The notes under the pieces are model-generated. The model saw nothing but the letters and a program-made list of their open reading frames with translations, was not told where the DNA came from and searched no databases. Made by a program: the position numbers and the translations under genes. 41,142 bases of DNA from a phage. Positions 562 through 30,891 of the stretch are shown here, in pieces (the stretch's first letter is position 1; every line of letters starts with the position of its first letter). The DNA lies in the sequence record PZ019083.1, one strand, 5' to 3'.

Positions 562-1808
562 GTATTCAGCTATCCGCGCCCCAGGCTCTGTTCCTGAATT
601 GCGATAACAAGTACAAGGCCTACGTCGGTGGCTTCGGCAGCGGTAAGACATTTGTTGGTTGCCTTGACCTGCTTACGTTTATGCTAAAGCACCCCGGTAC
701 GCGCCTGGGCTACTTCGGCCCCACATACCCAGCTATCCGCGACATCTTCTACCCAACATTCGAGGAAGCGGCTAACCTGCTTGGCCTTGATGTGCTGGTT
801 AAATCCGGCGACAAAGAAGTCGTGGTTACTCGTGGTAAGACGGTGCTCGGGACCATTATCTGCCGTTCGATGGATAATCCCGGCTCGATAGTCGGTTTCA
901 AAATCGCGGCTGCGGTCGTGGATGAGCTCGATGTATTGAGCCGCGAGAAAGCCGAGCTGGCGTGGAACAAAATTGTTGCTCGTATGCGTCTGGTTATACC
1001 AGGTGTAATTAACCACATCTCCGTCACCACGACGCCGGAAGGGTTCAAGTTCGTCTATGCCAAGTTCAAAGAGAACCCGACGCCGAGTTACTCAATGGTG
1101 CAGGCATCAACTCACGAGAACGCGCGATTCCTGCCACCGGATTACATTAGCTCGCTGACAGAGACTTACCCCGCGCAACTGATTAACGCGTATCTGAACG
1201 GGGAGTTCGTTAACCTGACCTCCGGCAGCGTGTATTACGCCTATGAGCGCCGTAAGCACCGCAGTAAAGAGACAATTCAACCTGGCGACACGCTGTACAT
1301 CGGGCAGGACTTCAACGTTACGAAGAACGCAAGCGCCGTGTATGTGCAACGTAAAGATGGCTGGCACGCTGTAGCAGAACTGAAAGGCCTGTTCGACACA
1401 CCAGACACCGTGCGCGTAATTACTGAGAGGTGGAAGTCACAAGGCCACCGCATAGTCATTTACCCCGACGCCAGCGGCAAGAACCGCAAAACCAACTCGG
1501 CATCAATCTCAGATATTGCATTACTCCAGCAGGCTGGGTTTGATGTTCGCGCTAAATCCGCCAACCCCCCGGTTAAAGACCGTGTTTTAGCCGTGAATAC
1601 CGCGCTGGAAAAAGGTAAGCTGTGGGTTAACGACCACTTATGCCCTGAGATAGCGAAGACGCTGGAGCAGCAGGCATACGACGATAACGGAGAGCCAGCT
1701 AAAGACGGCATCATTGACCATATGGCAGATGCTCTCGGCTATCCTGTAGTTTACGAGATGCCGGTGGTTAAACCAGTAATCAACATCCCGGTGACTTTCG
1801 CACTTTAA
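558..1808 (+). CDS. terminase large subunit
   Basis: Walker A-like motif GGFGSGKT near N-terminus, ATPase plus nuclease-sized protein (416 aa), precedes portal. Confidence 0.85.
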   Translation: MSIQLSAPQALFLNCDNKYKAYVGGFGSGKTFVGCLDLLTFMLKHPGTRLGYFGPTYPAIRDIFYPTFEEAANLLGLDVLVKSGDKEVVVTRGKTVLGTIICRSMDNPGSIVGFKIAAAVVDELDVLSREKAELAWNKIVARMRLVIPGVINHISVTTTPEGFKFVYAKFKENPTPSYSMVQASTHENARFLPPDYISSLTETYPAQLINAYLNGEFVNLTSGSVYYAYERRKHRSKETIQPGDTLYIGQDFNVTKNASAVYVQRKDGWHAVAELKGLFDTPDTVRVITERWKSQGHRIVIYPDASGKNRKTNSASISDIALLQQAGFDVRAKSANPPVKDRVLAVNTALEKGKLWVNDHLCPEIAKTLEQQAYDDNGEPAKDGIIDHMADALGYPVVYEMPVVKPVINIPVTFAL

Positions 1809-3349: not shown

Positions 3350-4426
3350 ATGCTATTAACTTTAGCACCACAGGGTTTAACTATGAGCTTACTTACATCC
3401 CTAATCAGCCACCAGATATGGCTGCAACGAACCGCATCCGGCGAAGTGAAAGACCTCGCACCGTTCATTCAGGAAATGCGGGACGAAATCAAACGGCAGG
3501 TGCTGTTATTCGGTGACGACGGGCGAAGCACCGCGCGGCTGAATAAACTGTTACGCGACCTTGAAGAAGCGCTAACCGGACTTACCGGCGACTGGCAAAC
3601 AAAGCTGACAGAAGACCTCAAGGAGCTGGCGGCGTATGAGGCTGAGTGGAACGTAAAGACGCTGGCCACCAACGTAGATGCGGAATTTGTCACGCCTACC
3701 GCCGAACAGGTGTGGGCTGCCGCTGAGTTTCAACCCTTATCATTAAGCGACAAGCCTGTTGATTTCACTAAGCTGATGTCGGGATGGGGTGAAACCGAAG
3801 TAGCACGTCTCGTAACCGGCGTTAAGATGGGCTTTGTTCAGGGTAAGACAACACGGCAGATTGTTACAGAAGTAGTCGGTAAAGGTGGGCTGGCTGACGT
3901 ATCAGAGAAATATGCGGCTACAGTAATCCGCACCGCGCTGTCCCACGTATCCAACGAAGCCCGTAACGAGACGTACCGCCAGAACGACGACATCATCGAG
4001 AAGTACGAGTGGGTGTCGACGCTGGACAGCCGTACCAGTACGATTTGTAGGGCCAGAGACGGAATGACGTGGGAAATCGGTAAGGGGCCGATGCCGCCAG
4101 CACATCCGAATTGCCGGAGTACCACTGCACCAGTAATCAGTTCGGAGTTCGACTTCCTCGATAAGGGAGCAAAACGAGCAGCTAAGGGTGCGGACGGCGG
4201 TATGCAGGTAAGTGCAGACACCACCTATTATGAGTTCCTGAAACAACAACCGGCATGGTTTCAGGACCAGGCTCTAGGCCCTGTTCGCGGTAAGATTTTC
4301 CGTAACAGCGGTATATCGCCGGAAGAGTTTCGCGTAATATCTGTAGATGGTTTCGGGAATCCGCTCACGCTTAAGCAGATGGCGGAACTCGATAAACGTG
4401 TTGCTGATTATCTGAAAGGGGAATAA
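3350..4426 (+). CDS. head morphogenesis / minor head protein (Mu F or SPP1 gp7-like)
   Basis: 358 aa ORF after portal; C-terminal Cys/His-containing region; start could instead be ATG 3371. Confidence 0.55.
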   Translation: MLLTLAPQGLTMSLLTSLISHQIWLQRTASGEVKDLAPFIQEMRDEIKRQVLLFGDDGRSTARLNKLLRDLEEALTGLTGDWQTKLTEDLKELAAYEAEWNVKTLATNVDAEFVTPTAEQVWAAAEFQPLSLSDKPVDFTKLMSGWGETEVARLVTGVKMGFVQGKTTRQIVTEVVGKGGLADVSEKYAATVIRTALSHVSNEARNETYRQNDDIIEKYEWVSTLDSRTSTICRARDGMTWEIGKGPMPPAHPNCRSTTAPVISSEFDFLDKGAKRAAKGADGGMQVSADTTYYEFLKQQPAWFQDQALGPVRGKIFRNSGISPEEFRVISVDGFGNPLTLKQMAELDKRVADYLKGE

Positions 4427-4887
4427 TGATGGGCTTTTTCAAAGTAACTGATGTACCGTCACGCCGCGTAGTACAGTACGCCCGTGTGTCTGGTTCCGGC
4501 GAGAACGTAACCTACGTTGAAGATGAAAGTGTACTAGGTACACCCGTAGACGAGATGCCCTACGCAGACAAGACAGGTATCGCGCTCTCTGCCGCTGGTA
4601 TGCTTTATGAGATTCCGTATCTGGCTGACGCAGGCGACGTGTACTTCTCGGCGCAACCGCAGGACGCTGAACTGGCAGACGGCAGCGCAACTATCACTGT
4701 CGAAGTTAAGGCGGGCAAAGCGCCGTATGCTCTTACCTGGTACAAAGACGGAAAGGAAGTTGTAAACGCACCTGAAGAGGCCTTGTCTCTGACGGTTAAC
4801 GCAGTAGGTGAATACTTCGTTAAAGTCACCGATGCCAATGGTGTGGAGACGGTAAGCAAAGCGGCGAAGGTCACTAAGCCAGAATAA
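4426..4887 (+). CDS. hypothetical virion-associated protein with Ig-like C-terminal region
   Basis: ATGA start-stop overlap with upstream gene; C-terminal beta-rich repeat-like segment. Confidence 0.4.
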   Translation: MMGFFKVTDVPSRRVVQYARVSGSGENVTYVEDESVLGTPVDEMPYADKTGIALSAAGMLYEIPYLADAGDVYFSAQPQDAELADGSATITVEVKAGKAPYALTWYKDGKEVVNAPEEALSLTVNAVGEYFVKVTDANGVETVSKAAKVTKPE

Positions 4888-4892
4888 ACTGA

Positions 4893-4913
4893 AGCCCCGA
4901 AAGGGGCTTTTTA
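4893..4913 (+). terminator. intrinsic terminator
   Basis: AAGCCCC-GAAA-GGGGCTT hairpin followed by TTTTT. Confidence 0.6.
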
Positions 4914-4963
4914 GTGCCTGTGATTATTCCAGTTATTCCACTCAATTGTAAATGTTGGAATAA

Positions 4964-4977
4964 ACTATTCGAATAGT
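4964..4977. promoter_or_regulatory. 14-bp perfect palindrome ACTATTCGAATAGT abutting a TTGACT -35-like hexamer (4977-4982)
   Basis: Perfect dyad; the half-site ACTATTC recurs in promoters elsewhere in the window. Confidence 0.4.
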
Positions 4978-5024
4978 TGACTTTTCACTGAAAATATGAT
5001 AAGCTCCACCTGAGCTTGTGAAGT

Positions 5025-5171
5025 ATGAACAAGCGACCGCGGCGCGGGCAGGTAACGGAGCGGGACGTAAGTCCTGAGTGTAGTTACGCTGACGCGTTCG
5101 GAAGGGCCATACTCTATTGCTTGTGTAAAAAAGTAACGGGTTTACTGAGATTACGCCGTTTCTATGTTTAA
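5025..5171 (+). CDS. possible 48-aa basic Cys-containing mini-protein (or noncoding RNA)
   Basis: ATG-initiated ORF between promoter-like site and hairpin 5187-5206; weak RBS. Confidence 0.2.
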   Translation: MNKRPRRGQVTERDVSPECSYADAFGRAILYCLCKKVTGLLRLRRFYV

Positions 5172-5230
5172 ATGATAAGGACTAGCGCCCCGCTTTAAGG
5201 CGGGGCTTTACTTATCGAGAAAGGGGAAAC

Positions 5231-5617
5231 ATGAATCTTAAAGCAACTGTCGTAGCCGGAGCATGTTTCGTTGTCCTGGCCTACGCACACAGCATTTATC
5301 AGTATCGCAGCGGCTGGAACGAAGGCCGGGCGAATCTCGTTTCGCAGCAACAGCAGAAAGCACAGGCTGAGTTAGCGAAGAAAACACAACGGCAGCAGCA
5401 GGATGAATCAAAGGCCGCAGCCGCTGACAACGAAGGCAAGACGAAATCAGAGGTGATTACACGTGAAGTCGTTAAGTACATTAAAACGCCTGGTCGCAGC
5501 GTGTGCACTTTCGACGATGCTCGCGTCCTGCTCAAGTCCCGCGCTGTTGCCAACGCCAATTCCATCCCCGGATACGACAATGATGCAGCCGCCGTGCAAG
5601 TTGGCCCCGCCAAGTAG
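5231..5617 (+). CDS. i-spanin (Rz-like inner membrane spanin)
   Basis: N-terminal TM helix, Q/A/K-rich coiled-coil region, strong RBS AAAGGGGA; contains start of overlapped lipoprotein gene. Confidence 0.6.
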   Translation: MNLKATVVAGACFVVLAYAHSIYQYRSGWNEGRANLVSQQQQKAQAELAKKTQRQQQDESKAAAADNEGKTKSEVITREVVKYIKTPGRSVCTFDDARVLLKSRAVANANSIPGYDNDAAAVQVGPAK

Positions 5618-5726
5618 TGATGCTGACGAGGATTTGGCTATCGACGTTCAGAACGCAGAATGCGCCCGCCAGAATCGTCTGAAGGTATTCCGGTTGCAGG
5701 ATTACGTGAGGAATATTCTGGAATAG
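5463..5726 (+). CDS. o-spanin (Rz1-like outer membrane lipoprotein), +1 frame overlapping i-spanin 3' end
   Basis: GTG start, signal peptide with lipobox LASC (Cys23), proline-rich mature region with extra Cys. Confidence 0.55.
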   Translation: MKSLSTLKRLVAACALSTMLASCSSPALLPTPIPSPDTTMMQPPCKLAPPSSDADEDLAIDVQNAECARQNRLKVFRLQDYVRNILE

Positions 5727-5805
5727 TTGCCTTGTATGTTGGAATAATTTATTCTTGACATGTAAATCCGGGTGGCCCGGGTTCCAACGTCCAGGGGACA
5801 TACTG

Positions 5806-6432
5806 ATGAGCGAAGAAGTGAAAGACGAAACTATCGAACAACAAGAGACTAAGACCACGTTTACCAAAGAGGAAGTTGACGCGCTGGTATCAGGTCTTAA
5901 AGCTAACAACGAGAAACTCTTGTCTGAAAAGAAAGCTGCTGCCGCTGCCGCTAAAGAAGCCGCAGATGCGAAGCTGAAAGCCGAACAGGAACGCGCAAAA
6001 CAGAACGGCGAACTTGAGGCATTCGAGAAAACGTTACGTAGTCAGTATGAGCCAGTACTAGCCGAGAAAGACGGTAAGATTAACAAAATGGCTGAGCGTA
6101 TCCTCGGCGCAGAACGTAAATCAGTTATCAGCCAGTTGTCTGGCATGTTGATTGATGAGAGCGCAGCGGATATCATCGCTATGATGGTCAAGACCGAATT
6201 CGACGGCGATGACGTTGTGACCAAGTTCACTGGTGCAGATGGTAACGTCATCACCACCGACGCAGAGCAATTTAAAAAGTATCTGCGTGAGCACAAAGCA
6301 TTCTCGCATCTGATTAAAGCAGATGCAGCAACCGGCGGCGGGGCTTCCGGTAACAAAAATTCTACTGGCGGGGCCGGTGGTACGGACGTAATCCAGCAAA
6401 AACTTAACGCCAAATACGGCAAACGAGGATAA
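5806..6432 (+). CDS. head scaffolding protein
   Basis: Acidic, K/E/A-rich coiled-coil protein immediately upstream of major capsid gene. Confidence 0.55.
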   Translation: MSEEVKDETIEQQETKTTFTKEEVDALVSGLKANNEKLLSEKKAAAAAAKEAADAKLKAEQERAKQNGELEAFEKTLRSQYEPVLAEKDGKINKMAERILGAERKSVISQLSGMLIDESAADIIAMMVKTEFDGDDVVTKFTGADGNVITTDAEQFKKYLREHKAFSHLIKADAATGGGASGNKNSTGGAGGTDVIQQKLNAKYGKRG

Positions 6433-6438
6433 CAGAAT

Positions 6439-7407
6439 ATGTCTCTGTCAGATATGAAGGTTTATAACGACGATATCGTCGGTACCACTATCGAACTGCT
6501 TGGTCAGAAAACTGACCAGTTTAACGCGGCCTCTGGTGGGGCAATTGTACTGTCTACCGCTTCATGGCGCGGTGACTTCTCCCGTGAGTCTTTCTTTAAC
6601 CAGATTGCCTCAGCTAAACGCCGCGTTGACCGTTACGCGGCTATCGCCTCTCAGGCCGCTACCGCTCTGACTCAGGGAGAGCATGTAGGCGTTAAAGTCG
6701 CTGGCGGCTTCGGTCCAGTACTGTTCGAGCCTGCGCAAATGACCTGGCTGAACGAAGACCCGGCAAGCGCGATTCGTGCTATTTCAGAAGGCTTCTCTGA
6801 CGCACTGTTGGCAGACCAGCTTAACACTGCTGTTGGTGCTGCGGTTGCCGCGGTATCCGGTCAGACCGCACTGGTTAACGACGTATCTGCGTCCGCGGGC
6901 CTGTCCCTGAACGTGCTGAACAACAGCCACGCTAAATTCGGCGACCAGTCTCAGTTGCTGATTACCGACATCATGACTGGCGCGGCTTACCACACTCTGG
7001 TAGACAAAGCGCTGACCAACGCAAACCAGCTGTTCGTTGCCGGTAACGTTATGGTTGTCGATGTTCTCGGTAAGCGTTACGTAATCTCCGACATCCCTGC
7101 GCTGTACGAAGCTGGTACTCCGAACAAGACTAAGGTCCTGTCCGTAGTTGCAAACGGCATCATCGTTGACAATGCTTCTGACATTATCAGCAACATTGAC
7201 ACCAGCAACGGTAACACCCGCATCCAGACCACCTGGCAGGCGGACTACAGCTTCGGCCTGAAACTGAAAGGCTATAGCTGGGATGCTACCAACGGCGGTA
7301 AATCTCCGCTGGATGCAGAACTGTTCACCGCATCCAACTGGGACAAAGCTGTTGCCGAGAACAAGCACACCCTCGGTACTCTGGCAATCGCTGACGCAGA
7401 CCTGTAA
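6439..7407 (+). CDS. major capsid protein
   Basis: 322 aa ORF with strong RBS, after scaffold, followed by strong terminator. Confidence 0.7.
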   Translation: MSLSDMKVYNDDIVGTTIELLGQKTDQFNAASGGAIVLSTASWRGDFSRESFFNQIASAKRRVDRYAAIASQAATALTQGEHVGVKVAGGFGPVLFEPAQMTWLNEDPASAIRAISEGFSDALLADQLNTAVGAAVAAVSGQTALVNDVSASAGLSLNVLNNSHAKFGDQSQLLITDIMTGAAYHTLVDKALTNANQLFVAGNVMVVDVLGKRYVISDIPALYEAGTPNKTKVLSVVANGIIVDNASDIISNIDTSNGNTRIQTTWQADYSFGLKLKGYSWDATNGGKSPLDAELFTASNWDKAVAENKHTLGTLAIADADL

Positions 7408-7464: not shown

Positions 7465-7632
7465 GTGGAAATTAAATACGTACCAATGCCAATCACCATC
7501 GAGCAGAAGCGCGAATATAACCGTCAGGGGTTCCGCGTGGTAGATGCGCGTTTCGCACCAGAAGGTGCTGTGGTAGAATCGACTAAAGAAGAGACGCCAC
7601 GCCGCCAGCGTCGGGCGAAATCAGAGGAATAA
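7465..7632 (+). CDS. small hypothetical protein (55 aa, GTG start)
   Basis: AGGAG RBS 6 nt upstream of GTG; not in ORF track because under 60 aa. Confidence 0.35.
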   Translation: MEIKYVPMPITIEQKREYNRQGFRVVDARFAPEGAVVESTKEETPRRQRRAKSEE

Positions 7633-7635
7633 TTT

Positions 7636-8148
7636 ATGCCGCTAATCGTGGAAGATGGGTCGATAGTACCTGATGCCGACAGTTACGTTAGTCTGGCTGA
7701 CGCCCGCGCGTTAGCGGCTAATTATGGTCTTGAGCTACCTGCAGACGATACTGCCGCGGAGGTGGCCCTGCGCAACGGTGCTACTTATGTTGGGCTTGCG
7801 GAGCCGCAGATGTGCGGTCGCCGTGTATCCGCCGAGCAGTCTCTGGCATACCCACGTACCGGAACAACACTAAACGGCTTCACCGTAGCTGATAATGTTA
7901 TTCCGTCGCAGTTAATCCGGGCGCAAGTAATCGCTGCTGTTACGTACGGCGTAGGTACGGATGTTCGGGCTAACTCTGATGGACGTTCCGTGCAGACCGA
8001 ACGTGTCGAGGGTGCGGTGACAGTGACCTACTTCAACAACGGCAACAGTGGCGCTACAACCGCCATCACCGCTGCGGACGACGCCTTACGCCCGTTACGG
8101 TGCGGCGGCCTCAATAATGGCTTCTCATTTAACGTGTACCGGGGTTAA
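7636..8148 (+). CDS. head-tail connector / adaptor protein
   Basis: 170 aa, position after capsid gene. Confidence 0.45.
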   Translation: MPLIVEDGSIVPDADSYVSLADARALAANYGLELPADDTAAEVALRNGATYVGLAEPQMCGRRVSAEQSLAYPRTGTTLNGFTVADNVIPSQLIRAQVIAAVTYGVGTDVRANSDGRSVQTERVEGAVTVTYFNNGNSGATTAITAADDALRPLRCGGLNNGFSFNVYRG

Positions 8149-11357: not shown

Positions 11358-12484
11358 CCCAGCATCTCCGGTGAAATAGTTAAACGTGCGACCTCGCCGT
11401 ATTCGGCGCTATAAGTAATTACATTTGCACTACGGCCCGACATCCAACCGCCTCTGGATGCGTAGGCGTCTTTGGCCGCTAAGGTGCGGTGTTGCTCAAC
11501 AATCATGTTACGGCTTTCTACAATCTTTTGGTGGTGCAGGTGGCCTACGTGGGCGTAGCTATAAACGCTCTCGCCGAACGCTTTGCGGAACTTGGCGATC
11601 ATAACCGGTTCAATAGCGTCGAATCGTGCTTTATGCCCGTGGTGAAAGAACAACGTCGTTTTGCCGTGTTGCACCATCTTGTAAACGTCCGGCGACGTGT
11701 CGACGATCACTCGGCTGTCTTTTGAGTATAAAGTCGTGAACATTTCCGCCAACCACACAGACCCTACAGGGTCGTGATTTCCTTGCACGATAAGCAAGCG
11801 AACATTTTTGTGCTTAACGAGCGCCATATCAACAACACGGCGGACCATACGAATCATGTAACGTACAAGTTTCTGGTAGCGCGTATCTGCATCCAACACA
11901 TGGCGCGACTCAGGCGTAACGGCGTCCAGGCTATCGAAGTGCGCGAAGTCGCCCAGCAGGTTAATAACTCCAGTTCCCGCGTCTGGTGCTTTCTGAAACG
12001 CGGCATCAAACCACCGAGAAAACAGGTCTTCAGCAATCTTCATATCCCAGTCGTCGCCGCTCTCGTCGGCCCAGGCCAGCATGCCGAGATGGAAATCAGA
12101 TACCGTGTAAAGATTGAGTAGCTTGTCATCACGTTTGGCTCGAGTCGCTTTAACAGGGACAACCGGCGTAATCTCTGACTTCATGCCTTCAATTACGGCT
12201 TTCATCAACTCGACCTGACGTTCGGCGTCAGTATCGGTCTTAACCCATTGCAGTTTAGTGTTGCCAAACTCGTCCACTAGTGACGACGTTCCTTTAATCT
12301 TGTAGCCGTCTGGCACAAGGTGACTAACGTCACGTCCGTGGCCTACACCTTTCTTAGCCAGCTTCGCTTTACGGATACGAATAACGCGGTCCGAGATGCC
12401 GTATTTACGGGCGATGTCTACATTCTTCATCCCGGCGTTCAATTCTTCCTGTAACTGTTCGTCGGTTATTTTCTTATGGGCCAT
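11354..12484 (-). CDS. HTH-containing calcineurin-like metallophosphoesterase
   Basis: Motifs SDFHLG, GDFAHFD, GNHD, HHGH, GHLHH; N-terminal HTH-like segment; start at ATG 12484 (MAHKK) with GAGGAAG RBS. Confidence 0.6.
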   Translation of the reverse strand: MAHKKITDEQLQEELNAGMKNVDIARKYGISDRVIRIRKAKLAKKGVGHGRDVSHLVPDGYKIKGTSSLVDEFGNTKLQWVKTDTDAERQVELMKAVIEGMKSEITPVVPVKATRAKRDDKLLNLYTVSDFHLGMLAWADESGDDWDMKIAEDLFSRWFDAAFQKAPDAGTGVINLLGDFAHFDSLDAVTPESRHVLDADTRYQKLVRYMIRMVRRVVDMALVKHKNVRLLIVQGNHDPVGSVWLAEMFTTLYSKDSRVIVDTSPDVYKMVQHGKTTLFFHHGHKARFDAIEPVMIAKFRKAFGESVYSYAHVGHLHHQKIVESRNMIVEQHRTLAAKDAYASRGGWMSGRSANVITYSAEYGEVARLTISPEMLG

Positions 12485-12714: not shown

Positions 12715-12744
12715 TTTAAACCCCTTCATTGTTGGTGTAAGTGA

Positions 12745-12773
12745 ATAGTACCCTATTATATTGGGGTGTGCAA
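12745..12773 (-). promoter_or_regulatory. sigma70-type promoter TTGCAC-17-TACTAT (class A) driving the antisense accessory operon
   Basis: Near-identical to promoters at 34294 and 35511. Confidence 0.55.
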
Positions 12774-12881
12774 GTAATGTGATAGAATAATTTTGCGCCT
12801 AGTGTCGCACACGAAAAGCGGGTGGTTCCCGTCTGGCGCATTTACCGTTAACCTGTAACCTCTTAACCAAAGGATTAAAGA

Positions 12882-23481: not shown

Positions 23482-24903
23482 TTATCGTTTCCTTCTCTTC
23501 ATATAATTAAGTAGTTCGTCCTGTACAGACCTTTTCTCGTCTGTACGCGCGGCGACAACTTCATCAAGAGTATTTCGGGCTATTATTTGATAAATGAATA
23601 CAGACCGTTTGTATCCAGATTGCATCTGCCTTACCGGGCCTATACGCTCGATAACCTGCAGATAATGTTCCAGGTTCCACCCCTGACTAATAAATGCCAT
23701 GTGGTGTCCGCCATGTTGTAGCGACAGCCCGTGGCCCGCAGAAGCTGGGTGTATCAGGAGCATAGGTATCTCACCGCGGTTCCACGCTTCCATCTGCTTA
23801 TTGCCCTTAGCACCTTTTGCAAATGCCTGTGCTTGGGGGAATCGCTTAAGGATGCGCTCCAGTTCGTGCTTGAACTGATAGGCGACCAGTAACGGCGCAC
23901 CCTGTAACTCCTCAACAATTGACTCAAGCGCATCCAGTTTCGTGTCGTGCACTTTCTCCCATTCTTTGGTTGCTTCGCCGTCTTCGCCCGTCACATACAC
24001 AGCACCGGAAGCAATCTGCAAGCACTTAGCCGTTTTAGCGGCGGCGTTGGCGGCCTGCACCTCCCCACTCTCCAGTTCCGCGATTAACTTTTTCTCCATG
24101 TCGTCGTACGCCTGACGCGCTTTCTTCGGCAGGTCGATTTCAACCGGTACAATAATCGGCGCTTCACAACCAAACCACTCGGCGGGGTCGATGGTCAGGC
24201 TGATGTCTTTCATCTTCTGATGAATCTCATTATCGGCACCAGGTCGCGCGTGATATTCACGCGCCATAGCCGACTTACCTTTCTGTACCGAGTTAAACCA
24301 GCGGTCGGTGAATGCTGTGTACGATGAACCGAGTCGCTCACCGGCGTCGATAAACCAGTTCTGACCCCACAAGTCTTTGAGGCCGTTTGGCGACGGCGTA
24401 CCAGTCAGGTTGATGAAACGCCTAACCTTACCGAACGCCACTTTACTAAGCGCCTTTGCTCGCTTGCTTCCGCCAGAACGGCTACGGAATGATTTAAGCT
24501 TCGTGCTTTCATCAGCAACAATAACGGTAAAAGGCCAGTCGTCTTTGCCGTAGTAGTCAATCAGCCACTCGATAACCTCGTAGTTGGTGCATACCACGTT
24601 AGCGTCTGACTCCAGAGCCGCGATGCGGCGCTTCTCCGAACCTGTTGCATCGGCGACACTCAGACACGGGAAACCCCACTTAGTTTGTTCTGCGGGCCAC
24701 GTACCAGACGCAACGCGCAACGGGGCAAGGATTAACACGCGGTCCTCTTCGGTAAGCTGCCCGTTGCGAAACAGTCGGTTGAGCACCCACATAGTAGAGG
24801 AGGTTTTACCCCCTCCCATGCCGCACCAGATATTACAGCGAGGGTGTTGCAACATGAACGAAGTCATGAGCTTCTGGTATTCACGCCTTTGAAACTTACT
24901 CAT
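23482..24903 (-). CDS. SNF2/DEAD-like superfamily 2 DNA helicase
   Basis: Walker A GMGGGKT, DExx box VADEST, helicase C-terminal motifs. Confidence 0.8.
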   Translation of the reverse strand: MSKFQRREYQKLMTSFMLQHPRCNIWCGMGGGKTSSTMWVLNRLFRNGQLTEEDRVLILAPLRVASGTWPAEQTKWGFPCLSVADATGSEKRRIAALESDANVVCTNYEVIEWLIDYYGKDDWPFTVIVADESTKLKSFRSRSGGSKRAKALSKVAFGKVRRFINLTGTPSPNGLKDLWGQNWFIDAGERLGSSYTAFTDRWFNSVQKGKSAMAREYHARPGADNEIHQKMKDISLTIDPAEWFGCEAPIIVPVEIDLPKKARQAYDDMEKKLIAELESGEVQAANAAAKTAKCLQIASGAVYVTGEDGEATKEWEKVHDTKLDALESIVEELQGAPLLVAYQFKHELERILKRFPQAQAFAKGAKGNKQMEAWNRGEIPMLLIHPASAGHGLSLQHGGHHMAFISQGWNLEHYLQVIERIGPVRQMQSGYKRSVFIYQIIARNTLDEVVAARTDEKRSVQDELLNYMKRRKR

Positions 24904-25091
24904 TTTGCCACCAGAACTAACTCTTTACGTCCGAACGCCGTAACGTTACCAGTTACATCTTCGATAACCAGTTTACCGTTCGACTCGACAAACACCGTAT
25001 CTACGGCAACAGGGCGACGGGTCTTAACGTTGAAAATCAGGTCACCAGGTACGATGTCACGTGCTGGTTTGCGGTCATATTCGTGTTTCAT
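24900..25091 (-). CDS. hypothetical protein (63 aa)
   Basis: ATGA coupling to helicase gene; immediately downstream of promoter at 25125-25153. Confidence 0.4.
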   Translation of the reverse strand: MKHEYDRKPARDIVPGDLIFNVKTRRPVAVDTVFVESNGKLVIEDVTGNVTAFGRKELVLVAK

Positions 25092-25121
25092 TTCTCAATT
25101 CCTTATATTGTTGGTGTAGGG

Positions 25122-25406
25122 CTAACTATAATAGTTAGCTATTAGGTCGTCAACCTGTTTAAACGAACCAACGACAAAAACATTCGCGCCACGTTTACGC
25201 ATCCGCGCGTGTTCACGTAGCTGGTGCGGGTCTGGCTTCGTGTTTTCGTCTTTCTTAACCTCGACGAACCAGACTATGCCGCCGGGGAGAATTACCAGCA
25301 GGTCAGGAGCGCCTGAGCGCCCCTCGTAAGACAGCTTACGAACGAGGCCACCAATGGCCTCGAACATCTCTTTTGCGTATTTCTGAATCTTGCCTTCCGG
25401 GGTCAT
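25122..25406 (-). CDS. VRR-NUC domain nuclease
   Basis: Motif GAPDLLVILPGGIVWFVEVK typical of VRR-NUC PD-(D/E)XK fold. Confidence 0.65.
   Translation of the reverse strand: MTPEGKIQKYAKEMFEAIGGLVRKLSYEGRSGAPDLLVILPGGIVWFVEVKKDENTKPDPHQLREHARMRKRGANVFVVGSFKQVDDLIANYYS
25125..25153 (-). promoter_or_regulatory. sigma70 promoter TTGACG-17-TATAGT (class B) embedded in 3' end of VRR-NUC gene
   Basis: Same architecture as promoters at 28680 and 30799. Confidence 0.5.
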
Positions 25407-25555
25407 GAGCGCAGAACCCAGGTTATAAACGCTCCTCCGAGAACGGCAACGCCAACAAACTTAAAGAACAGGCCGTAACAGAACATCGCAGCTATTCCCG
25501 CGCCGAGTAACAGTGCGAGCATGGTTACTATCGCCCAAAATACAAACATTGTCAT
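25403..25555 (-). CDS. small membrane protein (50 aa)
   Basis: Two hydrophobic helices; ATGA overlaps on both sides. Confidence 0.35.
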   Translation of the reverse strand: MTMFVFWAIVTMLALLLGAGIAAMFCYGLFFKFVGVAVLGGAFITWVLRS

Positions 25556-25641
25556 AATACGCACCCCTCGCGTTTCGTGTGCTCAATACCGCAGCGCGGA
25601 CAGATTCGGCAGTCTTCTTCGTAGAACCAGTAAATTTTCAT
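25552..25641 (-). CDS. mini zinc-ribbon-like protein (29 aa)
   Basis: Translation MKIYWFYEEDCRICPRCGIEHTKREGCVL (C-x2-C-x2-C ... C); ATGA overlaps on both sides. Confidence 0.3.
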   Translation of the reverse strand: MKIYWFYEEDCRICPRCGIEHTKREGCVL

Positions 25642-25769
25642 TCCAGCACCCACAGATAAATTGCGATGAACATTCCCAATACCGCAGCCATCATGCCGTA
25701 TTGGCCCTCGTGACAATAGACACCGGCGGCAAATCCTGCCAGTAACGCGATAATCAGTTTACTTAGCAT
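25638..25769 (-). CDS. small membrane protein (43 aa)
   Basis: Hydrophobic; starts 11 nt inside DNA polymerase 3' end. Confidence 0.3.
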   Translation of the reverse strand: MLSKLIIALLAGFAAGVYCHEGQYGMMAAVLGMFIAIYLWVLE

Positions 25770-27939
25770 AGCGCTTCATCTCCGCACCTTCTGCCACAAG
25801 AGGGAACCCTTCGGCCCATTCCGGTAATTCGCACATTAATTTTTCCAGTTCAGCCACCGTGTACTCAGGTGTGTCTGGAGTTTCACACACTAATTCATCG
25901 TGTACCGAAAGCACGATGGGGTACCCGCCGCCCTCAACATTAATCATCGCGTATGCGAGTAAATCACGGCACAGCGCCTGAGTGCAGTTTTCCACCAGTT
26001 TACCGGAGTAGGTGTACTGGAAGCCCCACTGACGGGTTAACTGGTTTTCGCCCTGGTACTTGATGCGCACGTTAGTGGACACCTTCCCGTCTTCGTCTGC
26101 CTCTTTAGACACACTTAACCCGACGCCCGGATAAGACATAACGCGGCCCGACGGCAACGTCATGCGCAGCCACCAACCAGCGACTTTGTTGCCGTTGTTA
26201 TCTGTTTCTACGTTACGCGAAAACTTAACTCCCCGCGGACCTGCAGTGAACTCTTTACCTGGGTTGCGGATAGCCGCCATAGCTGCGTCTTCAATATCAC
26301 GCCAGAATGCTACTGTTTCAGGGTGAGACTCCCGCCACATGCGCTTGATAGCGTCACAGGTGCGCCACACTTTCTTATCAAGAATATATGACGGCCGGTC
26401 GTCTTTTTCACCAGGACGTGGTTGTCGCTTGGCTTCCTGAATACGTGCCCACTCATATCCACGTGCGGTAGCGGTCCAGATGTGGTCGGGGAAAGTACCG
26501 TCCATTGTTTTAGCCATATCAACCAGGTCAAGGCCGAGGTTCTTGGCGAACTGTACGAATGCGCCGACACCGCCCGCGTAGCCAAGACCCAATTCACAGG
26601 CTTTACCAATCTGGCGTAAGTCTTTACGTTCTTTCTTAATGTAATCCGGATCCATGCCAAACATCTTACCCGCGGTTACACAGTAAATATCCAGCCCAGC
26701 GCGGAACGTATCGAGCGCGGTTTCTTCTCCCGCCAGCCACGCAAGCCCACGGCCTTCAACGTTAGAGTAATCGGCAACGACAAACTTATGCCCTGCTTCC
26801 GGGATAATGCAGCTACGAACTGTCGATGCCGTCAGCTTGGCTACGTCAAATCGGCGGTGAGCACGACCCTTAAGTAACGCTGAAATGCCTTTATCCAGTT
26901 CATCATCATGATAGTACCCGCGGGCCAGGTTCTGCGGCTGAAAGCCTTTACCCGCCCATCGCAAAGTACGTTTTGCCCCGCCGTACTGTAAACAACCGCG
27001 GCGTCGGTCGTCCGACGAGCGGCCCAACAGCAGCGGGTTATATTTCGTTGATGCGGTGGATGCGGCCCCGAGGCGCATTTCGATAATCGTGCGAGCGTCG
27101 TCCGGTAAATCATCATCCGCCAGCAGGTCGTTAAGCGTCGACTTCTGCGCATTGTGGATGCGGTGCGCTGGCGCAAGTTCACGCAGAATCGGAAGGAAGT
27201 CTTTACCGGTAAGTGAGCCGCCGTATTTGCGTTGGGCTTCTTCCTGTAACTGTGCCTTGTGCTTCTCCACGGCTTCAATCGCTGCTTCTGCCAGCGCTAC
27301 GTCAACCTTAAACCCGCGGTCGTTGATTAACTGGTCCAGTTCCAGTACACGGTCTTCAAACTCGGAGTTACCCCACCGCGGCAGCTTATGGAAGACTTCC
27401 CGCATCGCAGTGATGTCGCTCACGGCGTACTTGATGAACAGCGCCCACTCATCGGGATGTGTTTCAGCGGTGTAGCGGCGGATTTTGTAGTTCTTAGGTG
27501 TCGGTTTAGAAAAACGCTGAATCAGCGCCTTGCCGCGTTTGTCTTTTGCGTTGTCCGCAGACACGCCCAGCACTTCGCACAATGCGTCAAGTGAACCCGG
27601 CAGCGCGTGGCGAAACGCCCAAATCATCGTATCAATGGTGTTGCTTACCGGAATATCAAAGTCCCAGCAGTGTTTCATGATGAGCCTGTCGAACATTGAG
27701 CCGTTGTGCCACACCATCTTAATGCGGCTGTTTGGCTTAACCAGACGGCGTAAGGCGCGGTGCAAATCCCCCGGCATGTCGCTGCCGTCTGTGCAATCCC
27801 ATACCTGCACAGGCTCGTCGTCAAAAGCGTATGTGCAGATAAGCACTTCGGTAGTTGGGTGCTCTGCGTAAGCGTATGAACCGACTTTCTTTAAATCGGC
27901 TTCGGAGAATGTTTCAAAGTCTAAGAACAGGTAACTCAT
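25759..27939 (-). CDS. DNA polymerase, family A with N-terminal 3'-5' exonuclease
   Basis: N-terminal LDFETFS exo motif, 726 aa, Pol A-like C-terminal region. Confidence 0.8.
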   Translation of the reverse strand: MSYLFLDFETFSEADLKKVGSYAYAEHPTTEVLICTYAFDDEPVQVWDCTDGSDMPGDLHRALRRLVKPNSRIKMVWHNGSMFDRLIMKHCWDFDIPVSNTIDTMIWAFRHALPGSLDALCEVLGVSADNAKDKRGKALIQRFSKPTPKNYKIRRYTAETHPDEWALFIKYAVSDITAMREVFHKLPRWGNSEFEDRVLELDQLINDRGFKVDVALAEAAIEAVEKHKAQLQEEAQRKYGGSLTGKDFLPILRELAPAHRIHNAQKSTLNDLLADDDLPDDARTIIEMRLGAASTASTKYNPLLLGRSSDDRRRGCLQYGGAKRTLRWAGKGFQPQNLARGYYHDDELDKGISALLKGRAHRRFDVAKLTASTVRSCIIPEAGHKFVVADYSNVEGRGLAWLAGEETALDTFRAGLDIYCVTAGKMFGMDPDYIKKERKDLRQIGKACELGLGYAGGVGAFVQFAKNLGLDLVDMAKTMDGTFPDHIWTATARGYEWARIQEAKRQPRPGEKDDRPSYILDKKVWRTCDAIKRMWRESHPETVAFWRDIEDAAMAAIRNPGKEFTAGPRGVKFSRNVETDNNGNKVAGWWLRMTLPSGRVMSYPGVGLSVSKEADEDGKVSTNVRIKYQGENQLTRQWGFQYTYSGKLVENCTQALCRDLLAYAMINVEGGGYPIVLSVHDELVCETPDTPEYTVAELEKLMCELPEWAEGFPLVAEGAEMKRYAK

Positions 27940-27954
27940 TATTTTCGACCCTTA

Positions 27955-27979
27955 GTAAAAAGGCCCAATGAAGGGCCTT
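27955..27979 (-). terminator. intrinsic terminator / attenuator between DUF2815-like gene and DNA polymerase
   Basis: On minus strand: AAGGCCC-TTCATT-GGGCCTT followed by TTTTT. Confidence 0.45.
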
Positions 27980-27998
27980 AGTTAAATTGATTCAGATA

Positions 27999-28625
27999 TT
28001 AGCGGCGACGACGTTCGCGGCGCGGTGCTTCATCTTCTTCGTCGTCTTCCAGGTCATTGACGCTTGCGGCGACTTTAGAACCACCAAACGCCTTACCTTC
28101 GCCGACGTATTTAATTCCCAGCAGTTTAACACCGAGGACTTTATATTTCTGGCTGAACCAGATTTCAACGCTTACGTTAGCGACGCATCCGCTGTAAACC
28201 TGTTCGCCTTCAATCTGTTCACCGTCTACATTGAAGTCCTGTTCTACCTGAGTCTCACCTTTTTTAGAGGTTATAATCAGCGGCTGTTTCTGCGCCTTCG
28301 CTTTGAAGTAGAAGCCTTCCGGGAAGTCTTCAAAGGGATTGTCACGCTCGGCAATGTCTTTAACAGCACATTTATCCATGTGCTTACCTTCGCCGTAGTT
28401 GGACCTCATCCACTTCTCTGCGGCGGCAGCACCTAACGCTTCTTCAACTACGGCGTAAACAGTGTCGTAAAGCGCATCGATTTGCGCATGGTCTGGCGGC
28501 AGGATAATAGTCGCGCTGTACTGGCCTTTAGTAATTGAGCCATCATCGTTTTCGCGGTCTTTTTCGCGTTCGAATACGTTAACCCAAGCAGTGTTTACTT
28601 TACGCAGATTTAATGTCAGTCCCAT
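27999..28625 (-). CDS. putative ssDNA-binding protein (DUF2815-like)
   Basis: 208 aa with acidic C-terminal tail, adjacent to polymerase and Cas4-like nuclease. Confidence 0.45.
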   Translation of the reverse strand: MGLTLNLRKVNTAWVNVFEREKDRENDDGSITKGQYSATIILPPDHAQIDALYDTVYAVVEEALGAAAAEKWMRSNYGEGKHMDKCAVKDIAERDNPFEDFPEGFYFKAKAQKQPLIITSKKGETQVEQDFNVDGEQIEGEQVYSGCVANVSVEIWFSQKYKVLGVKLLGIKYVGEGKAFGGSKVAASVNDLEDDEEDEAPRRERRRR

Positions 28626-28679
28626 CTTGATTTCTCGCTTTTAAGTTTACTCCGGGAAGCTGCCCGGCCAGTGATTAGA

Positions 28680-28708
28680 ACTATAATAGCTAACTATTCA
28701 GGTGTCAA
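28680..28708 (-). promoter_or_regulatory. sigma70 promoter TTGACA-17-TATAGT (class B)
   Basis: Consensus -35, 17-bp spacer containing GAATAGT element. Confidence 0.6.
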
Positions 28709-28712
28709 CACT

Positions 28713-29954
28713 TTATTCTAAATCTTCTCCACTAACCTGATTCCACTCAGGCCGTTTGTCGTCTGCCGTTGCAACGCATGGCGCTCCCGGCTTACGGGTA
28801 ATGAAGTCTTTCAGTTCTTCTTCCGGTATTACTTTAACAGCTTCGGTCGGTGTCATTAGCACTTCTTTAGTTAGCTTGTCGCCGTAGAGTTCTGTTACTT
28901 TCTCCGCGTCTTTCCACGCACGATTACTGGGACGGCCTTCAACCAGTTTGTACCCAGGCACTTTCTTACCTGAATGCAAAGCGGCGGCCATCGCTTTTTC
29001 AACCTTGTCGATGTGCTGGCGCAACAGCGGCAACTTCTCATACTCAGCTACGAGTTGCTCAGGCGTAAGTTCCAGCGCAAAGTCGTCCTCCAGTTCTTCC
29101 GCCAGTACCGCGTTAACGGTTTTTGTACGCGCGGCGCACTGTTCTGAGAACCGACACCACTGACAACCATCTGCAGAAGGCTTGAAGTCCGACGCTTTCA
29201 GGTTCTTCTTGCCGCGGGAATAAGCATCAAGAGCCAACAGCGCGCGTTTATGTGCGAACTTAGCGAACAGTTCCAGACCTTCAACCGAGATGTCCCACTC
29301 CGACGCACCGCCAGCATACGGCTGGAAGATTACCAGACGAACGGTTGTTATGTTATAACGTCTCTTGAGTCGGCGATAAACACCGAGAGCGTAAAGCATA
29401 AGCTGCTTGTTTTCTTTCGCTTCGACGCGATGTCGCCCGGTTTTAAGGTCCCCAATAATGAGCATGTGCTCGTCGGTGTTAGCCAGTTCCTGAACGGCAA
29501 CAAGGTCAGCGGTCCCGAACGTCTCAACGCCTTCATACCCAGGATGCAATACCTCAGTGAGATTGACGCGCATTTCCAGCTTGGCGTAAGTCGCAACGTC
29601 GATAATCGCTTTGCAGTAGTCGGTATACTTGCGCACCTGCTCAATCATGTCAGCCGTAATCAGTACCGCGCCTTTCACCGGGCTGATTAGAGCCTTAATC
29701 TGACCTTTGCCCTCATCCAACACGTAAGCACCAACTTCACGCTCTAATGGAAACGCAGTGCCTTTGATGTACTGGTTAAGGTGCATTTCCGCTATGGTGT
29801 GCATAGTCGTACCTAATACTGCGGCCTTACCGGACGTGTTAGGAATATCTTTTTCACAGGCCAGTGATGCAGCACAGCTTAGCCACTTTTTAGCGCCAGA
29901 CGGCGACAGCAGGGCGTGCACATCGTTATTGCCGCCGCGTTCTTTTAAAATCAT
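28713..29954 (-). CDS. Cas4-like PD-(D/E)XK exonuclease (DUF2800-like) with C-terminal Cys cluster
   Basis: N-terminal LSPSGAKKWLSC, C-terminal CQWCRFSEQC; ATG 29954 with GGGAGA RBS and ATGA coupling. Confidence 0.55.
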   Translation of the reverse strand: MILKERGGNNDVHALLSPSGAKKWLSCAASLACEKDIPNTSGKAAVLGTTMHTIAEMHLNQYIKGTAFPLEREVGAYVLDEGKGQIKALISPVKGAVLITADMIEQVRKYTDYCKAIIDVATYAKLEMRVNLTEVLHPGYEGVETFGTADLVAVQELANTDEHMLIIGDLKTGRHRVEAKENKQLMLYALGVYRRLKRRYNITTVRLVIFQPYAGGASEWDISVEGLELFAKFAHKRALLALDAYSRGKKNLKASDFKPSADGCQWCRFSEQCAARTKTVNAVLAEELEDDFALELTPEQLVAEYEKLPLLRQHIDKVEKAMAAALHSGKKVPGYKLVEGRPSNRAWKDAEKVTELYGDKLTKEVLMTPTEAVKVIPEEELKDFITRKPGAPCVATADDKRPEWNQVSGEDLE

Positions 29955-30223
29955 ACCCTGTTCTCCCACTGGTCGATTAAATGTCGTGTCTTATGCCCAC
30001 AATGCATAGCCCACCCATACATCGACTCAAAAACATAAAAGTCAGGCTTGGCGAAAGTCGTGCGCTTAATCTGTGACACGTGACGGCCTAAAGATATAGG
30101 CCGCGGTACTTTGCCTAAGTACGCCATCTCTTCCATCTGGTGCGCACCGGACGGCGCACGCAACAGCCATAGTGCCTCCGTGTTGTCCCGCCTGTCTACG
30201 GCCCGGTAGAGTTGGTAAATCAT
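29951..30223 (-). CDS. hypothetical protein (90 aa)
   Basis: Coupled upstream of nuclease gene. Confidence 0.35.
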   Translation of the reverse strand: MIYQLYRAVDRRDNTEALWLLRAPSGAHQMEEMAYLGKVPRPISLGRHVSQIKRTTFAKPDFYVFESMYGWAMHCGHKTRHLIDQWENRV

Positions 30224-30266
30224 AATTCCGACCCTCAGTTAAAGCGGCCCGAAGGCCGCGAGATAG

Positions 30267-30767
30267 TTAGTCTTCTTCGAAATACTTGTTCTTGATTGCC
30301 GTCAGGCGTTCAAGGTACTCAGCAAGGTCTTCATCTTTAATCGCGGCAATCTTCATCTTCTTACCGGTGAACTCCTCCAGCAGTTCATCAGAATCATCAC
30401 ACGCGGCATCGCTCGGACCTTCGTTAATGGCGTCGTCGATAGCCTGAATCTGGTCACGCAGAGACTGGTAATCGACTTCTTCTTTCTCTTCTTCCGGCTC
30501 TGGTGTCGGCTCCTCTACTTTAGCTTTACGCGGCTTGCGTTTTGGCTTCTCTTCTTCAACCGGTTTAGTATCAACTACGTCTTCACCTTCGACCGGGATT
30601 TCTTTTGATCCTTCTTCTGCACACTTGGCTACTGCTTCTTTGGTATACGCTACCGTCTCTACTTCCAGAGGCGCGGAAACCTGAACAACTTGTTTCACGC
30701 TGTTCGCAGCAATCAGTTCATGAGCAACTACGAAACGTTCCAGTAATACTAAGAATTTCTCTAACAT
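30267..30767 (-). CDS. highly acidic hypothetical protein with short basic patch
   Basis: E/D-rich (PEPEEEKEE, DDSDELLEE) plus KPKRKPRKAK. Confidence 0.4.
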   Translation of the reverse strand: MLEKFLVLLERFVVAHELIAANSVKQVVQVSAPLEVETVAYTKEAVAKCAEEGSKEIPVEGEDVVDTKPVEEEKPKRKPRKAKVEEPTPEPEEEKEEVDYQSLRDQIQAIDDAINEGPSDAACDDSDELLEEFTGKKMKIAAIKDEDLAEYLERLTAIKNKYFEED

Positions 30768-30798
30768 TTGTTTCTCTCCTCTCGTTTGGTATGGGCTA

Positions 30799-30827
30799 AC
30801 TATAATAGCGAACTATTCACATGTCAA
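30799..30827 (-). promoter_or_regulatory. sigma70 promoter TTGACA-17-TATAGT (class B), overlaps operator repeat R1
   Basis: Consensus hexamers; spacer carries ACTATTCACATGTCAA. Confidence 0.6.
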
Positions 30828-30855
30828 TGGGCTTTTCTAAAATAATTAATATGGT

Positions 30856-30871: not shown

Positions 30872-30891
30872 CTGACTAAGGAGTAATTGAC

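Follow-up and report, generated by a model that had tools for sequence, protein, structure and literature searches.

A conserved RNA fold upstream of the spanin gene in Kagunavirus and related phages, a candidate leader of the spanin-capsid operon

The window analyzed here is the whole of a phage sequence of 41,142 nucleotides (PZ019083.1), which blastn assigns to Kagunavirus (Guernseyvirinae). In its head module, a 343-bp intergenic stretch lies between the gene of an Ig-like head protein (4426-4887) and that of the i-spanin (5231-5617), and this stretch is 95-99% identical in 168 of the 181 phage records matching it in blastn. The operon that starts with the spanin continues with scaffold, major capsid and tail genes and ends at 11098. 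An earlier note, made from the sequence alone, had described an island between two terminators with an inverted repeat, a palindrome, a promoter-like site, a mini-ORF and a hairpin. All these features are found where it had placed them. Those at the DNA level, with the neighboring reading frames, are as follows.

4892-4909, no strand assigned: GC hairpin with a T-run, called terminator-like; it reads as bidirectional and would end the head-gene transcript
4924-4931 and 4933-4940, + strand: TTATTCCA, present twice in direct orientation; distal part of a conserved upstream array
4956-4963, - strand: TGGAATAA, the inverted copy of the TTATTCCA 8-mer, from a sequence scan
4964-4977, no strand assigned: perfect 14-bp palindrome ACTATTCGAATAGT, abutting the -35 element; possible regulator site
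4977-5005, + strand: putative extended -10 sigma-70-type promoter, from sequence reading and conserved elements
5025-5171, + strand: 48-aa ORF with an ATG start, judged not to be a gene
5231-5617, + strand: i-spanin gene, opening the downstream operon
5463-5726, + strand: ORF of an o-spanin candidate, in a frame overlapping the i-spanin

Hairpins of the same type as that at 4892-4909 also occur at 3320, 11101 and 22830 (families D2 and D4). In Jerseyvirus templet, a minus-strand tRNA-Ser is called by ARAGORN, and given in two GenBank records, across the upstream terminator; we judged it a false positive because the Rfam tRNA model does not see it and the window has no tRNA. A search for tRNA and tmRNA genes in the window gave neither.

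The putative promoter consists of a -35 element TTGACT (4977-4982), a 17-bp spacer, a TG at 4997-4998 and a -10 element TAAGCT (5000-5005), and would start transcription at about 5008-5013. A consensus promoter scan did not call it on the + strand because the -10 element matches at only three of six positions. The -35 element, the spacing, the TG and the TA...T of the -10 element are conserved in all homologues, paralogs included, and the deposited record of phage phi135 has a promoter annotated at the equivalent position. From the terminator at 4892-4909 to the start of the spanin gene, no further promoter of the sigma-70 type was found.

Upstream of the promoter, the 8-bp inverted repeat of the earlier note is made up of the direct copies at 4924 and 4933 and the inverted copy at 4956. 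TTATTCCA has five matches in the window where 1.1 would be expected, and three of these fall within 40 nt. The resulting array, TTATTCC(A) twice and then GGAATA, is kept across Kagunavirus, Jerseyvirus and phiEap-2-type phages and is missing from the promoters of the paralogous copies described below. Its conservation in three clades makes the array a good candidate for binding by a regulator. The palindrome ACTATTCGAATAGT indeed abuts the TTGACT hexamer, its last T being the first base of the hexamer. Perfect 14-bp palindromes occur twice in the window where about 2.5 are expected, so on its own the palindrome is within chance. It is near-invariant within Kagunavirus and degenerate in Jerseyvirus (TTTATTCAAAAAGT) and phiEap-2. 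Its proposed role as an operator for a dimeric regulator is plausible, and we regard it as a candidate site.

The motif ACTATTC had been said to recur in promoters across the genome. Enrichment is apparent, with 11 matches in the window against 4.1 expected, but the setting differs from that of the palindrome: the other copies lie inside the -10/start region or in the spacer of early promoters of the type TTGCAC-17-TACTATTCAC. Early promoters with ACTATTC flank an XRE-type HTH gene (30892-31104), and one regulator shared by the island and the early promoters is possible. Motifs related to GAATA/TATTC are also present upstream of the scaffold gene and at 7626. At 33454-33507 the window has another promoter-like copy, with the same 40-nt spacing of TTATTCCA and a palindrome with three mismatches; it lies inside a minus-strand ORF and was judged to be due to chance.

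Downstream of the promoter, we infer a structured RNA of about 200 nt on the + strand, from 5006 to about 5217. Transcription in this direction, and hence the RNA itself, is deduced from the promoter-like motif, strand-specific G-U pairs and covariation. In the predicted 5' domain, P1 and P2-P4 begin about 7 nt past the likely transcription start; its elements, all on the + strand, are as follows.

5006-5124: RNA 5' domain, P1 followed by the stacked P2-P3-P4 (fold, covariation, covariance model R1)
5014-5019 with 5029-5034: hairpin P1 (fold)
5037-5039 plus 5041-5046 with 5093-5101: P2 (fold)
5049-5056 with 5083-5087 plus 5089-5091: P3 (fold)
5061-5066 with 5071-5076: P4, with a GUAA loop (fold)
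from 5102: unpaired conserved tract AAGGGCCAUACUCUAUUG (conservation)

Covariance model R1 was built from 20 Kagunavirus sequences. In the window it has a single match (5006-5124, 149.8 bits), and 54 copies were found with it among an initial set of loci. Jerseyvirus copies score 42-48 bits and the phiEap-2 copy 20 bits (E=0.02). In the covariation alignment, which was fitted to model R1, standard pairs occupy 94.7% of the cells, as compared to 28-43% once the 3' partners are displaced by 1-3 columns. The observed covariation score was reached by none of 500 shuffles of this alignment. Folding and covariation analysis across related phages had been proposed in the earlier note, and it bears out a maintained structure, with changes on both sides at 13 of the 29 pairs. 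For one P2 pair (columns 42/107) the fitted alignment has CG 14 times, UA 13 times and AU twice; a plain MAFFT alignment, made with no structure fitting, gives the same picture for this pair (CG 15, UA 8, AU 1). Two invariant G-U pairs in P2 are compatible only with an RNA from the + strand.

The more distant homologues vary in a similar manner. The Jerseyvirus homologue is about 71% identical, the sequences of P1 and P4 differ at the same places, and in P2 GGCGCG/CGCGUU is replaced by GGUGCG/CGCAUU, a compensated change. A scan of IMG/VR for the core CGCRTTCGGAAGGGCC gave more variants, some with wholly different P3-P4 sequences and one with an A-U at the covarying P2 position. Conserved nucleotides gather at the junctions, the distal P3-P4 hairpin is free to vary, and the unpaired tracts are conserved as much as the stems. 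These substitution patterns show that the predicted fold of the 5' domain is evolutionarily maintained.

Further structural likenesses were considered and dropped. A pseudoknot between the P1 loop (AGUAUG) and CAUACU in the tail (5108-5113) is missing in Jerseyvirus, in the paralogs and in several Kagunavirus variants. Resemblances to the GGAA loop of SRP RNA, to the RfaH ops element and to the stem of the I-E CRISPR repeat were rejected because the relevant bases pair in P2 or vary among the phages. Rfam 15 gave no match in the whole window at gathering score, and under permissive thresholds the best matches had E values of 0.58 or worse and lay on hairpins. Rfam searches at the Jerseyvirus, vB_SenTO17 (phiEap-2-type), St162 and paralog loci gave nothing relevant, and a literature search returned no paper describing the leader RNA. 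The putative leader is a conserved and previously unannotated RNA, outside Rfam and the searched literature.

These results bear on the possibility that only the DNA matters, i.e., that operator, promoter and terminator are functional and the RNA fold is incidental. The conserved repeat array and palindrome would fit such an explanation, as would the related GAATA/TATTC motifs upstream of the scaffold gene and at 7626. However, it accounts neither for the 13 covarying pairs and the strand-specific G-U pairs nor for the 98% conservation of 119 nt past the promoter, and we regard it as most improbable.

The 48-aa ORF exists at 5025-5171 as the earlier note had described, and we examined whether this basic, Cys-containing micro-protein could be the functional product. 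Some GenBank records indeed annotate a hypothetical protein of 36-39 aa at this position. However, among 50 distinct full-length sequences the length of 48 aa occurs only in this window. In most Kagunaviruses the ORF has 36 aa because the run at 5128-5133 is one A shorter; variants have 17, 19, 34 or 40 aa, and the ORF is absent from several Kagunaviruses and from all Jerseyvirus and phiEap-2-type copies. Its start codon lies in the loop of hairpin P1 and is removed by an 11-nt deletion in Jerseyvirus. Substitutions are compensatory in the stems and not synonymous in the reading frame. With frame and length varying among the homologues and the ATG absent from Jerseyvirus and phiEap-2-type phages, the proposed micro-protein has next to no probability, and on this comparative evidence the ORF is best considered not a gene.

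The 3' part of the predicted RNA runs up to the spanin start and comprises the elements below, again on the + strand.

5125-5172: 3' linker with conserved GAGAUUACGCCGU (conservation)
5173-5217: two-part long hairpin (fold, covariation)
5174-5179 with 5211-5216: lower stem, GAUAAG/CUUAUC in Kagunavirus
5187-5193 with 5200-5206: upper GC stem GCCCCGC/GCGGGGC, called terminator-like
5158-5162 (GUUUC) with 5226-5230 (GAAAC): long-range helix, pairing kept across genera

The GCCCCGC/GCGGGGC hairpin at 5187-5206 is present and terminator-like, as had been noted: followed by TTTACTTATC, it answers to the definition of an intrinsic terminator in the window. The upper stem covaries: at 5191/5202 (A6 columns 45/56) all four of CG, GC, AU and UA occur. 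The T-run of Kagunavirus is at the same time the 3' arm of the conserved lower stem. Jerseyvirus has a lower stem of its own sequence (AUACG/CGUAU), and one Kagunavirus has a perfect version of 19 bp. The homologous hairpins of Jerseyvirus and phiEap-2 have no T-run and gave no terminator call. The position between two terminators thus holds for this window and not for Jerseyvirus and phiEap-2; what had been described as a terminator is the top of a longer conserved hairpin and is terminator-like only in Kagunavirus.

The long-range helix would close this hairpin and enclose the ribosome-binding region of the spanin gene. Its 3' partner (5226-5230) is positioned between the Shine-Dalgarno sequence (5221-5226) and the AUG at 5231. 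In Jerseyvirus the helix is kept with one compensatory change, U-A to A-U, and phiEap-2-type leaders likewise fold onto the spanin ribosome-binding region. There is thus modest comparative support for a helix onto the ribosome-binding region. Such a helix can form only in read-through RNA.

To compare conservation along the locus, identity to the window was measured over 37 distinct Kagunavirus loci aligned with MAFFT.

RNA 5' domain: 98.1%
RNA 3' part, 5125-5186: 95.5%
3' hairpin: 98.2%
repeat and promoter region: 92.9%
spanin gene: 90.4% (third codon positions 84%)
scaffold gene (module swapped): 54%
Ig-like gene (module swapped): 42%

What is best conserved in the neighborhood of the head module thus appears to be an RNA, not a protein. 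The earlier suggestion of a structured RNA from a small transcription unit gains support from the covariation, from conservation above that of the flanking genes and from the promoter and hairpin being kept across genera.

Homologues of the leader RNA occur in Kagunavirus, in Jerseyvirus and, weakly, in phiEap-2-like phages. A search of 5,426 complete E. coli genomes gave no related sequence, which argues that the RNA is neither a mimic of a host RNA nor prophage-borne. Among 185,579 species-representative bacterial genomes, true matches were found only on two phage-like contigs, one within a MAG and one within a draft assembly; four other matches were chance hits in GC-rich DNA. Three soil-metagenome matches of 18-27 bits, of single origin, were rejected as a by-product of the pattern search; on the one contig that was inspected, the match lay antisense within an alpha/beta-hydrolase ORF. 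An IMG/VR scan for TTATTCCAGTTATTCC mostly returned chance matches in AT-rich contigs and gave one new true locus. Both the spanin and the leader are absent from Vibrio phages whose capsid module is related; relative to these phages, leader and spanin together are an inserted module. In phage St162 a module of leader and spanin is relocated and still together. Other clades (St162-type, Serratia-type) have different spanin leaders of similar length, each with its own upstream repeats, which in the Serratia-type leader are CTCGCAA/TTGCGAG.

All 120 copies with enough flanking sequence are co-oriented with a downstream transcription unit and occur in two settings, with none elsewhere. In 108 of them the RNA core lies 110-122 nt upstream of the spanin start, and in the other 12 it lies 131-147 nt upstream of a conserved early promoter (TTGCAC-17-TACTAT). 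The latter are second copies found in some Kagunaviruses, located between divergent HTH/primase genes and the rightward early genes. Two sequence types occur among them, and their core promoter is almost unchanged. In these paralogs the RNA is followed by a hairpin and then by the separate conserved promoter, and the promoter of the RNA moved together with it in the duplication. Most Kagunaviruses, including the one in the window, lack the early copy. The early slot of the window is occupied by an unrelated sequence of 250 nt with its own promoter and with the 3' hairpin seen in type-1 paralogs. This slot is hypervariable, with only 3 of 190 matching records covering at least 80% of the slot sequence of the window.

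The explanation that we favor, with no more than middling confidence, is that the RNA forms the 5' leader of the spanin-scaffold-capsid-tail operon and acts mostly in cis. Upon firing of the promoter at 4977-5005, RNA polymerase would transcribe the leader and pass the 3' hairpin; it has to cross both because no other sigma-70-type promoter was found before the spanin. The hairpin would be a partial stop in Kagunavirus and probably none in Jerseyvirus, and together with the 5' domain it may decide the amount of read-through and the stability of the RNA. In read-through RNA, GCCGUUUC would pair with the bases between the spanin Shine-Dalgarno sequence and AUG, and this closing helix may set spanin translation. 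The 5' domain appears the likeliest part to be recognized by a factor, either RNA polymerase, a phage protein or a host protein, which would then decide read-through, stability or translation. Upstream, a DNA-binding protein that regulates the promoter may have its sites in the TTATTCC array and the palindrome.

Several observations favor a leader acting in cis. The distance to the downstream unit is fixed and all 120 copies are co-oriented with it, the 3' hairpin lacks terminator character in Jerseyvirus and phiEap-2, and the helix onto the ribosome-binding site is kept with a compensatory change. Moreover, leader and spanin stay together in St162 and are both absent from the Vibrio relatives. 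On the other hand, the early paralog, with its own following promoter and its hypervariable slot, looks more like a self-contained RNA gene, and the promoter was duplicated along with the RNA. The helix at the ribosome-binding site depends on a single compensatory event, and the consensus scan made no call for the + strand promoter. Among 30 ORFs scanned with PHROGs (early, regulatory and other small ones) were two HTH regulators (33722-33928 on the minus strand, and 30892-31104), holins and an endolysin, and many ORFs received no function; no Q- or N-like antiterminator and no factor able to read the 5' domain emerged from these scans. A published RNA-seq study of a Kagunavirus gives gene-level classes only (PMC12645636).

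Another explanation is a trans-acting small RNA, an RNA moron in which the promoter, the RNA of about 200 nt and the 3' hairpin form an autonomous gene. Such an RNA would accumulate and bind a protein or pair with an mRNA of host or phage, and read-through into the spanin gene would be incidental. The unit has its own near-consensus -35 and extended -10 elements and a GC hairpin at its 3' end. It was copied as a whole, promoter included, into a hypervariable accessory slot where another promoter follows, and it is an insertion relative to the Vibrio relatives. The conservation of unpaired tracts at the level of the stems also fits this explanation. Against this, every copy is directly upstream of, and co-oriented with, a transcription unit, and in Jerseyvirus and phiEap-2 the 3' hairpin has no U-tail. 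The helix at the spanin ribosome-binding site requires read-through RNA. A k-mer complement search within the phage returned complementary targets only as 10-12-mers at chance level, and no related sequence was found in E. coli genomes. We consider this the strongest rival of the cis leader, serious and still a tentative possibility.

The 5' domain might also be an RNA-only processive antiterminator of the put type. In such a scheme, RNA polymerase, bound by the nascent two-hairpin domain that it is transcribing, would no longer respond to the leader hairpin, nor to Rho-dependent or intrinsic stops farther downstream. Two irregular stem-loops a few bases past the likely start, followed by a stop signal and a long operon, are what would be expected, and the 30 ORFs scanned with PHROGs included none recognized as Q- or N-like. 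In some genomes paralogs head two operons, as putL and putR do in HK022 (PMC9378689). However, with filters off model R1 had no match better than E=1.7 in HK022 24000-36000, which we take to be the immunity and early-promoter region, put itself not being annotated in the HK022 record. The domain measures about 95 nt, as compared to about 70 for put. Between 5231 and 8000 the + strand showed no strong terminator other than the leader's own hairpin, which leaves no evident need for processivity, and the early copy is missing in most Kagunaviruses, this window included. Furthermore, the hairpin would serve no purpose if promoter and antiterminator were both constantly active. We consider a put-like antiterminator unlikely.

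A riboswitch or a protein-dependent attenuator, in which a metabolite or a late phage protein toggles the hairpin or the ribosome-site helix, would agree with the order of promoter, conserved structured domain, hairpin and ribosome-binding site, and with conserved nucleotides at the junctions next to a variable P3-P4. Nevertheless, no Rfam riboswitch matched even at permissive thresholds, and a conserved alternative partner for the 5' arm of the hairpin was not found in the 5' domain: the candidate upstream segment stays constant where the hairpin stem covaries. About 60 nt of weakly structured linker separate the 5' domain from the hairpin. Such a switch thus appears very unlikely.

A cis-acting leader at this position is likely a control point for late gene expression and lysis, since it lies behind what is apparently the sole promoter between the upstream terminator and the spanin-scaffold-capsid genes. 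Kagunavirus and Jerseyvirus are frequently isolated as candidates for biocontrol of E. coli K1 and Salmonella, and hundreds of their genomes have been deposited. In deposited genomes the leader region is blank or annotated as a short hypothetical protein. The leader RNA would merit an Rfam family, and the GenBank annotations could be corrected. A bolder possibility, which we hold to be doubtful, is that the 5' domain represents a new class of factor-independent RNA that reprograms the transcription or translation machinery of the host. In its cis form this could be a put-like antiterminator unrelated to put, and in its trans form a host-takeover or anti-defense RNA. Should RNA polymerase or a host factor prove to be its target, the 5' domain would join the very few RNA-only regulators of this kind as a second, unrelated example. 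In either form, the new RNA class would serve a whole subfamily of virulent phages that infect E. coli and Salmonella, with a duplicate at the early operon in some genomes.

Comparison with known systems shows partial similarity to four of them. Translational operators and 5' UTRs that sequester the ribosome-binding site are a general class found at late or lysis genes of phages. The leader resembles these in its predicted pairing with the bases that lie between the spanin Shine-Dalgarno sequence and AUG, which is seen across genera, but such a model leaves the conserved 5' domain and the early-locus paralog unexplained. Phage morons are units of promoter, gene and terminator inserted between conserved genes. 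Like them, the leader is inserted between head genes as compared to the Vibrio relatives and has its own promoter, a 3' hairpin and a copy in an accessory slot. Unlike in morons, the cargo would be RNA instead of protein, and its 3' end is structurally joined to the ribosome-binding site of the next gene.

The late leader of phage lambda consists of the promoter pR', the 194-nt 6S transcript and the terminator tR', followed by S-R-Rz/Rz1 and the morphogenesis genes, and is controlled by the Q protein at the promoter. The locus described here likewise combines a strong putative promoter, about 200 nt of untranslated RNA and a hairpin with lysis-type and then head and tail genes, the lysis-type genes being only Rz/Rz1-type spanins here and S-R-Rz/Rz1 in lambda. 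No conserved RNA fold is known to be required in the lambda leader. Here, in contrast, the fold is under selection and PHROGs detected no Q-like protein among the 30 ORFs.

The put RNAs suppress downstream terminators in cis through the zinc-binding domain of the RNA polymerase beta' subunit. In HK022, the antiterminator RNAs putL and putR head two operons (PMC9378689). The similarity is one of layout only: irregular stem-loops close to a promoter, stop signals downstream, no antiterminator protein recognizable among the 30 scanned ORFs, and paralogs at the heads of two operons, with 108 copies at the spanin gene and 12 at the early locus. Unlike put, the domain of about 95 nt is followed by a further 3' domain of 100 nt that reaches the spanin ribosome-binding region.

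The leader-plus-spanin module (4921-5617), when compared with 4426-4887 and 5806-7407, is bordered by mosaic boundaries. At least 95% identity to the capsid protein of the window was found in only 19 phage records, versus 168 records for the leader. In aligned columns of 37 Kagunavirus loci, identity was about 42% for the Ig-like gene and about 54% for the scaffold gene.

The proximal part of the array of TTATTCC-type repeats upstream of the leader promoter, GGAATAAnnTATTC, is found again within the head operon, at 5720-5760 and 7626-7639. Over both strands and with overlaps counted, it has seven matches, against 1.3 expected. One copy lies immediately 5' of the scaffold gene and is followed by TTGACA (5755-5760) with no recognisable -10 element, and another is located where the gene at 7636 begins. 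These recurrences may be additional sites, inside the head operon, for the putative regulator of the upstream array. The array itself also contains a promoter-like site on the opposite strand:

4923-4952, minus strand: promoter-like site TTTACA-18-TG-AATAAT (10 of 12 matches), inside the repeat array

The scan called this site both in Kagunavirus and in Jerseyvirus (in the Salmonella phage templet, L001, at 1501-1530, minus strand), and transcription from it would run directly into the bidirectional hairpin at 4892-4909. The site may be a mere by-product of the conserved AT-rich repeats.

The early promoters of one family carry a common operator-like motif, which takes the form TAATAGnnnACTATTCAC or TTGCAC-17-TACTAT. 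Its sites are:

12738-12774, minus strand: early promoter site
28679-28722: early promoter site
30798-30871: early promoter site
34293-34333: early promoter site

Two copies of the motif flank the XRE-type HTH gene (30892-31104). Five of the 11 occurrences of ACTATTC belong to these early-promoter sites, and all five lie outside the island at 4913-5230.

Upstream of the conserved early promoter there is a hypervariable intergenic slot (33930-34260), which was compared with 4100-4400 of contig L051 and 11680-11990 (minus strand) of contig L020. In the window it holds about 250 nt of non-coding, unrelated sequence in addition to a consensus promoter:

about 33961-33989: consensus promoter TTGACA-17-TAAAAT

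The 3' end of this sequence is a CTCACTCACTCACTCTTGGTGCCTTCGGCACC hairpin identical to that of the leader RNA's type-1 paralogs, i.e., one of the two sequence types of its second copy in the early locus of some Kagunaviruses. Of the 190 matching records, only 3 include 80% or more of the window's slot sequence, which folds no better than its shuffles (z = -0.95).

ARAGORN and the GenBank records place a tRNA-Ser(tga) at 1434-1512 (minus strand) in templet, and phage wast is annotated likewise; the call takes in the last stretch of the upstream CDS, the whole terminator hairpin and some of the repeat array. The Rfam tRNA model did not detect this tRNA in templet, and the window has no corresponding call. 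The tRNA is probably a false positive that has been propagated into annotations. The covariance model of the leader-RNA 5' domain, R1, matched three soil-metagenome contigs with 18-27 bits:

L272 1406-1530, minus strand: R1 match
L278 3014-3138: R1 match
L282 6167-6291: R1 match

In L272, the one soil contig examined, the match is antisense within an alpha/beta-hydrolase ORF. This result cautions that hits selected by a pattern can score high by construction.

The early rightward operon closes with two holin genes and the endolysin gene (37274-38307). The spanins (5231-5726) are located inside the head module, some 8 kb past these genes on the circular map; more distant relatives of the spanin (L243-L248) immediately follow an endolysin-like reading frame. 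In other clades of the Guernseyvirinae, the spanin gene is preceded by leaders that are not homologous to this one and span about 200-300 nt:

L227 and L233, 900-1000: other-clade leader region
L057, 1570-1650: other-clade leader region
L168, 560-910: other-clade leader region

What the St162-type leader has in common with that of the window is limited to the AUAGUCUAUU tract and a comparable arrangement of hairpins. Each clade's leader is preceded by its own heptamer repeats, e.g., CTCGCAA/TTGCGAG in Serratia-type contigs and TTCCGCA/TGCGGAA in Tsm2. The comparison suggests co-evolving pairs of regulator and site.
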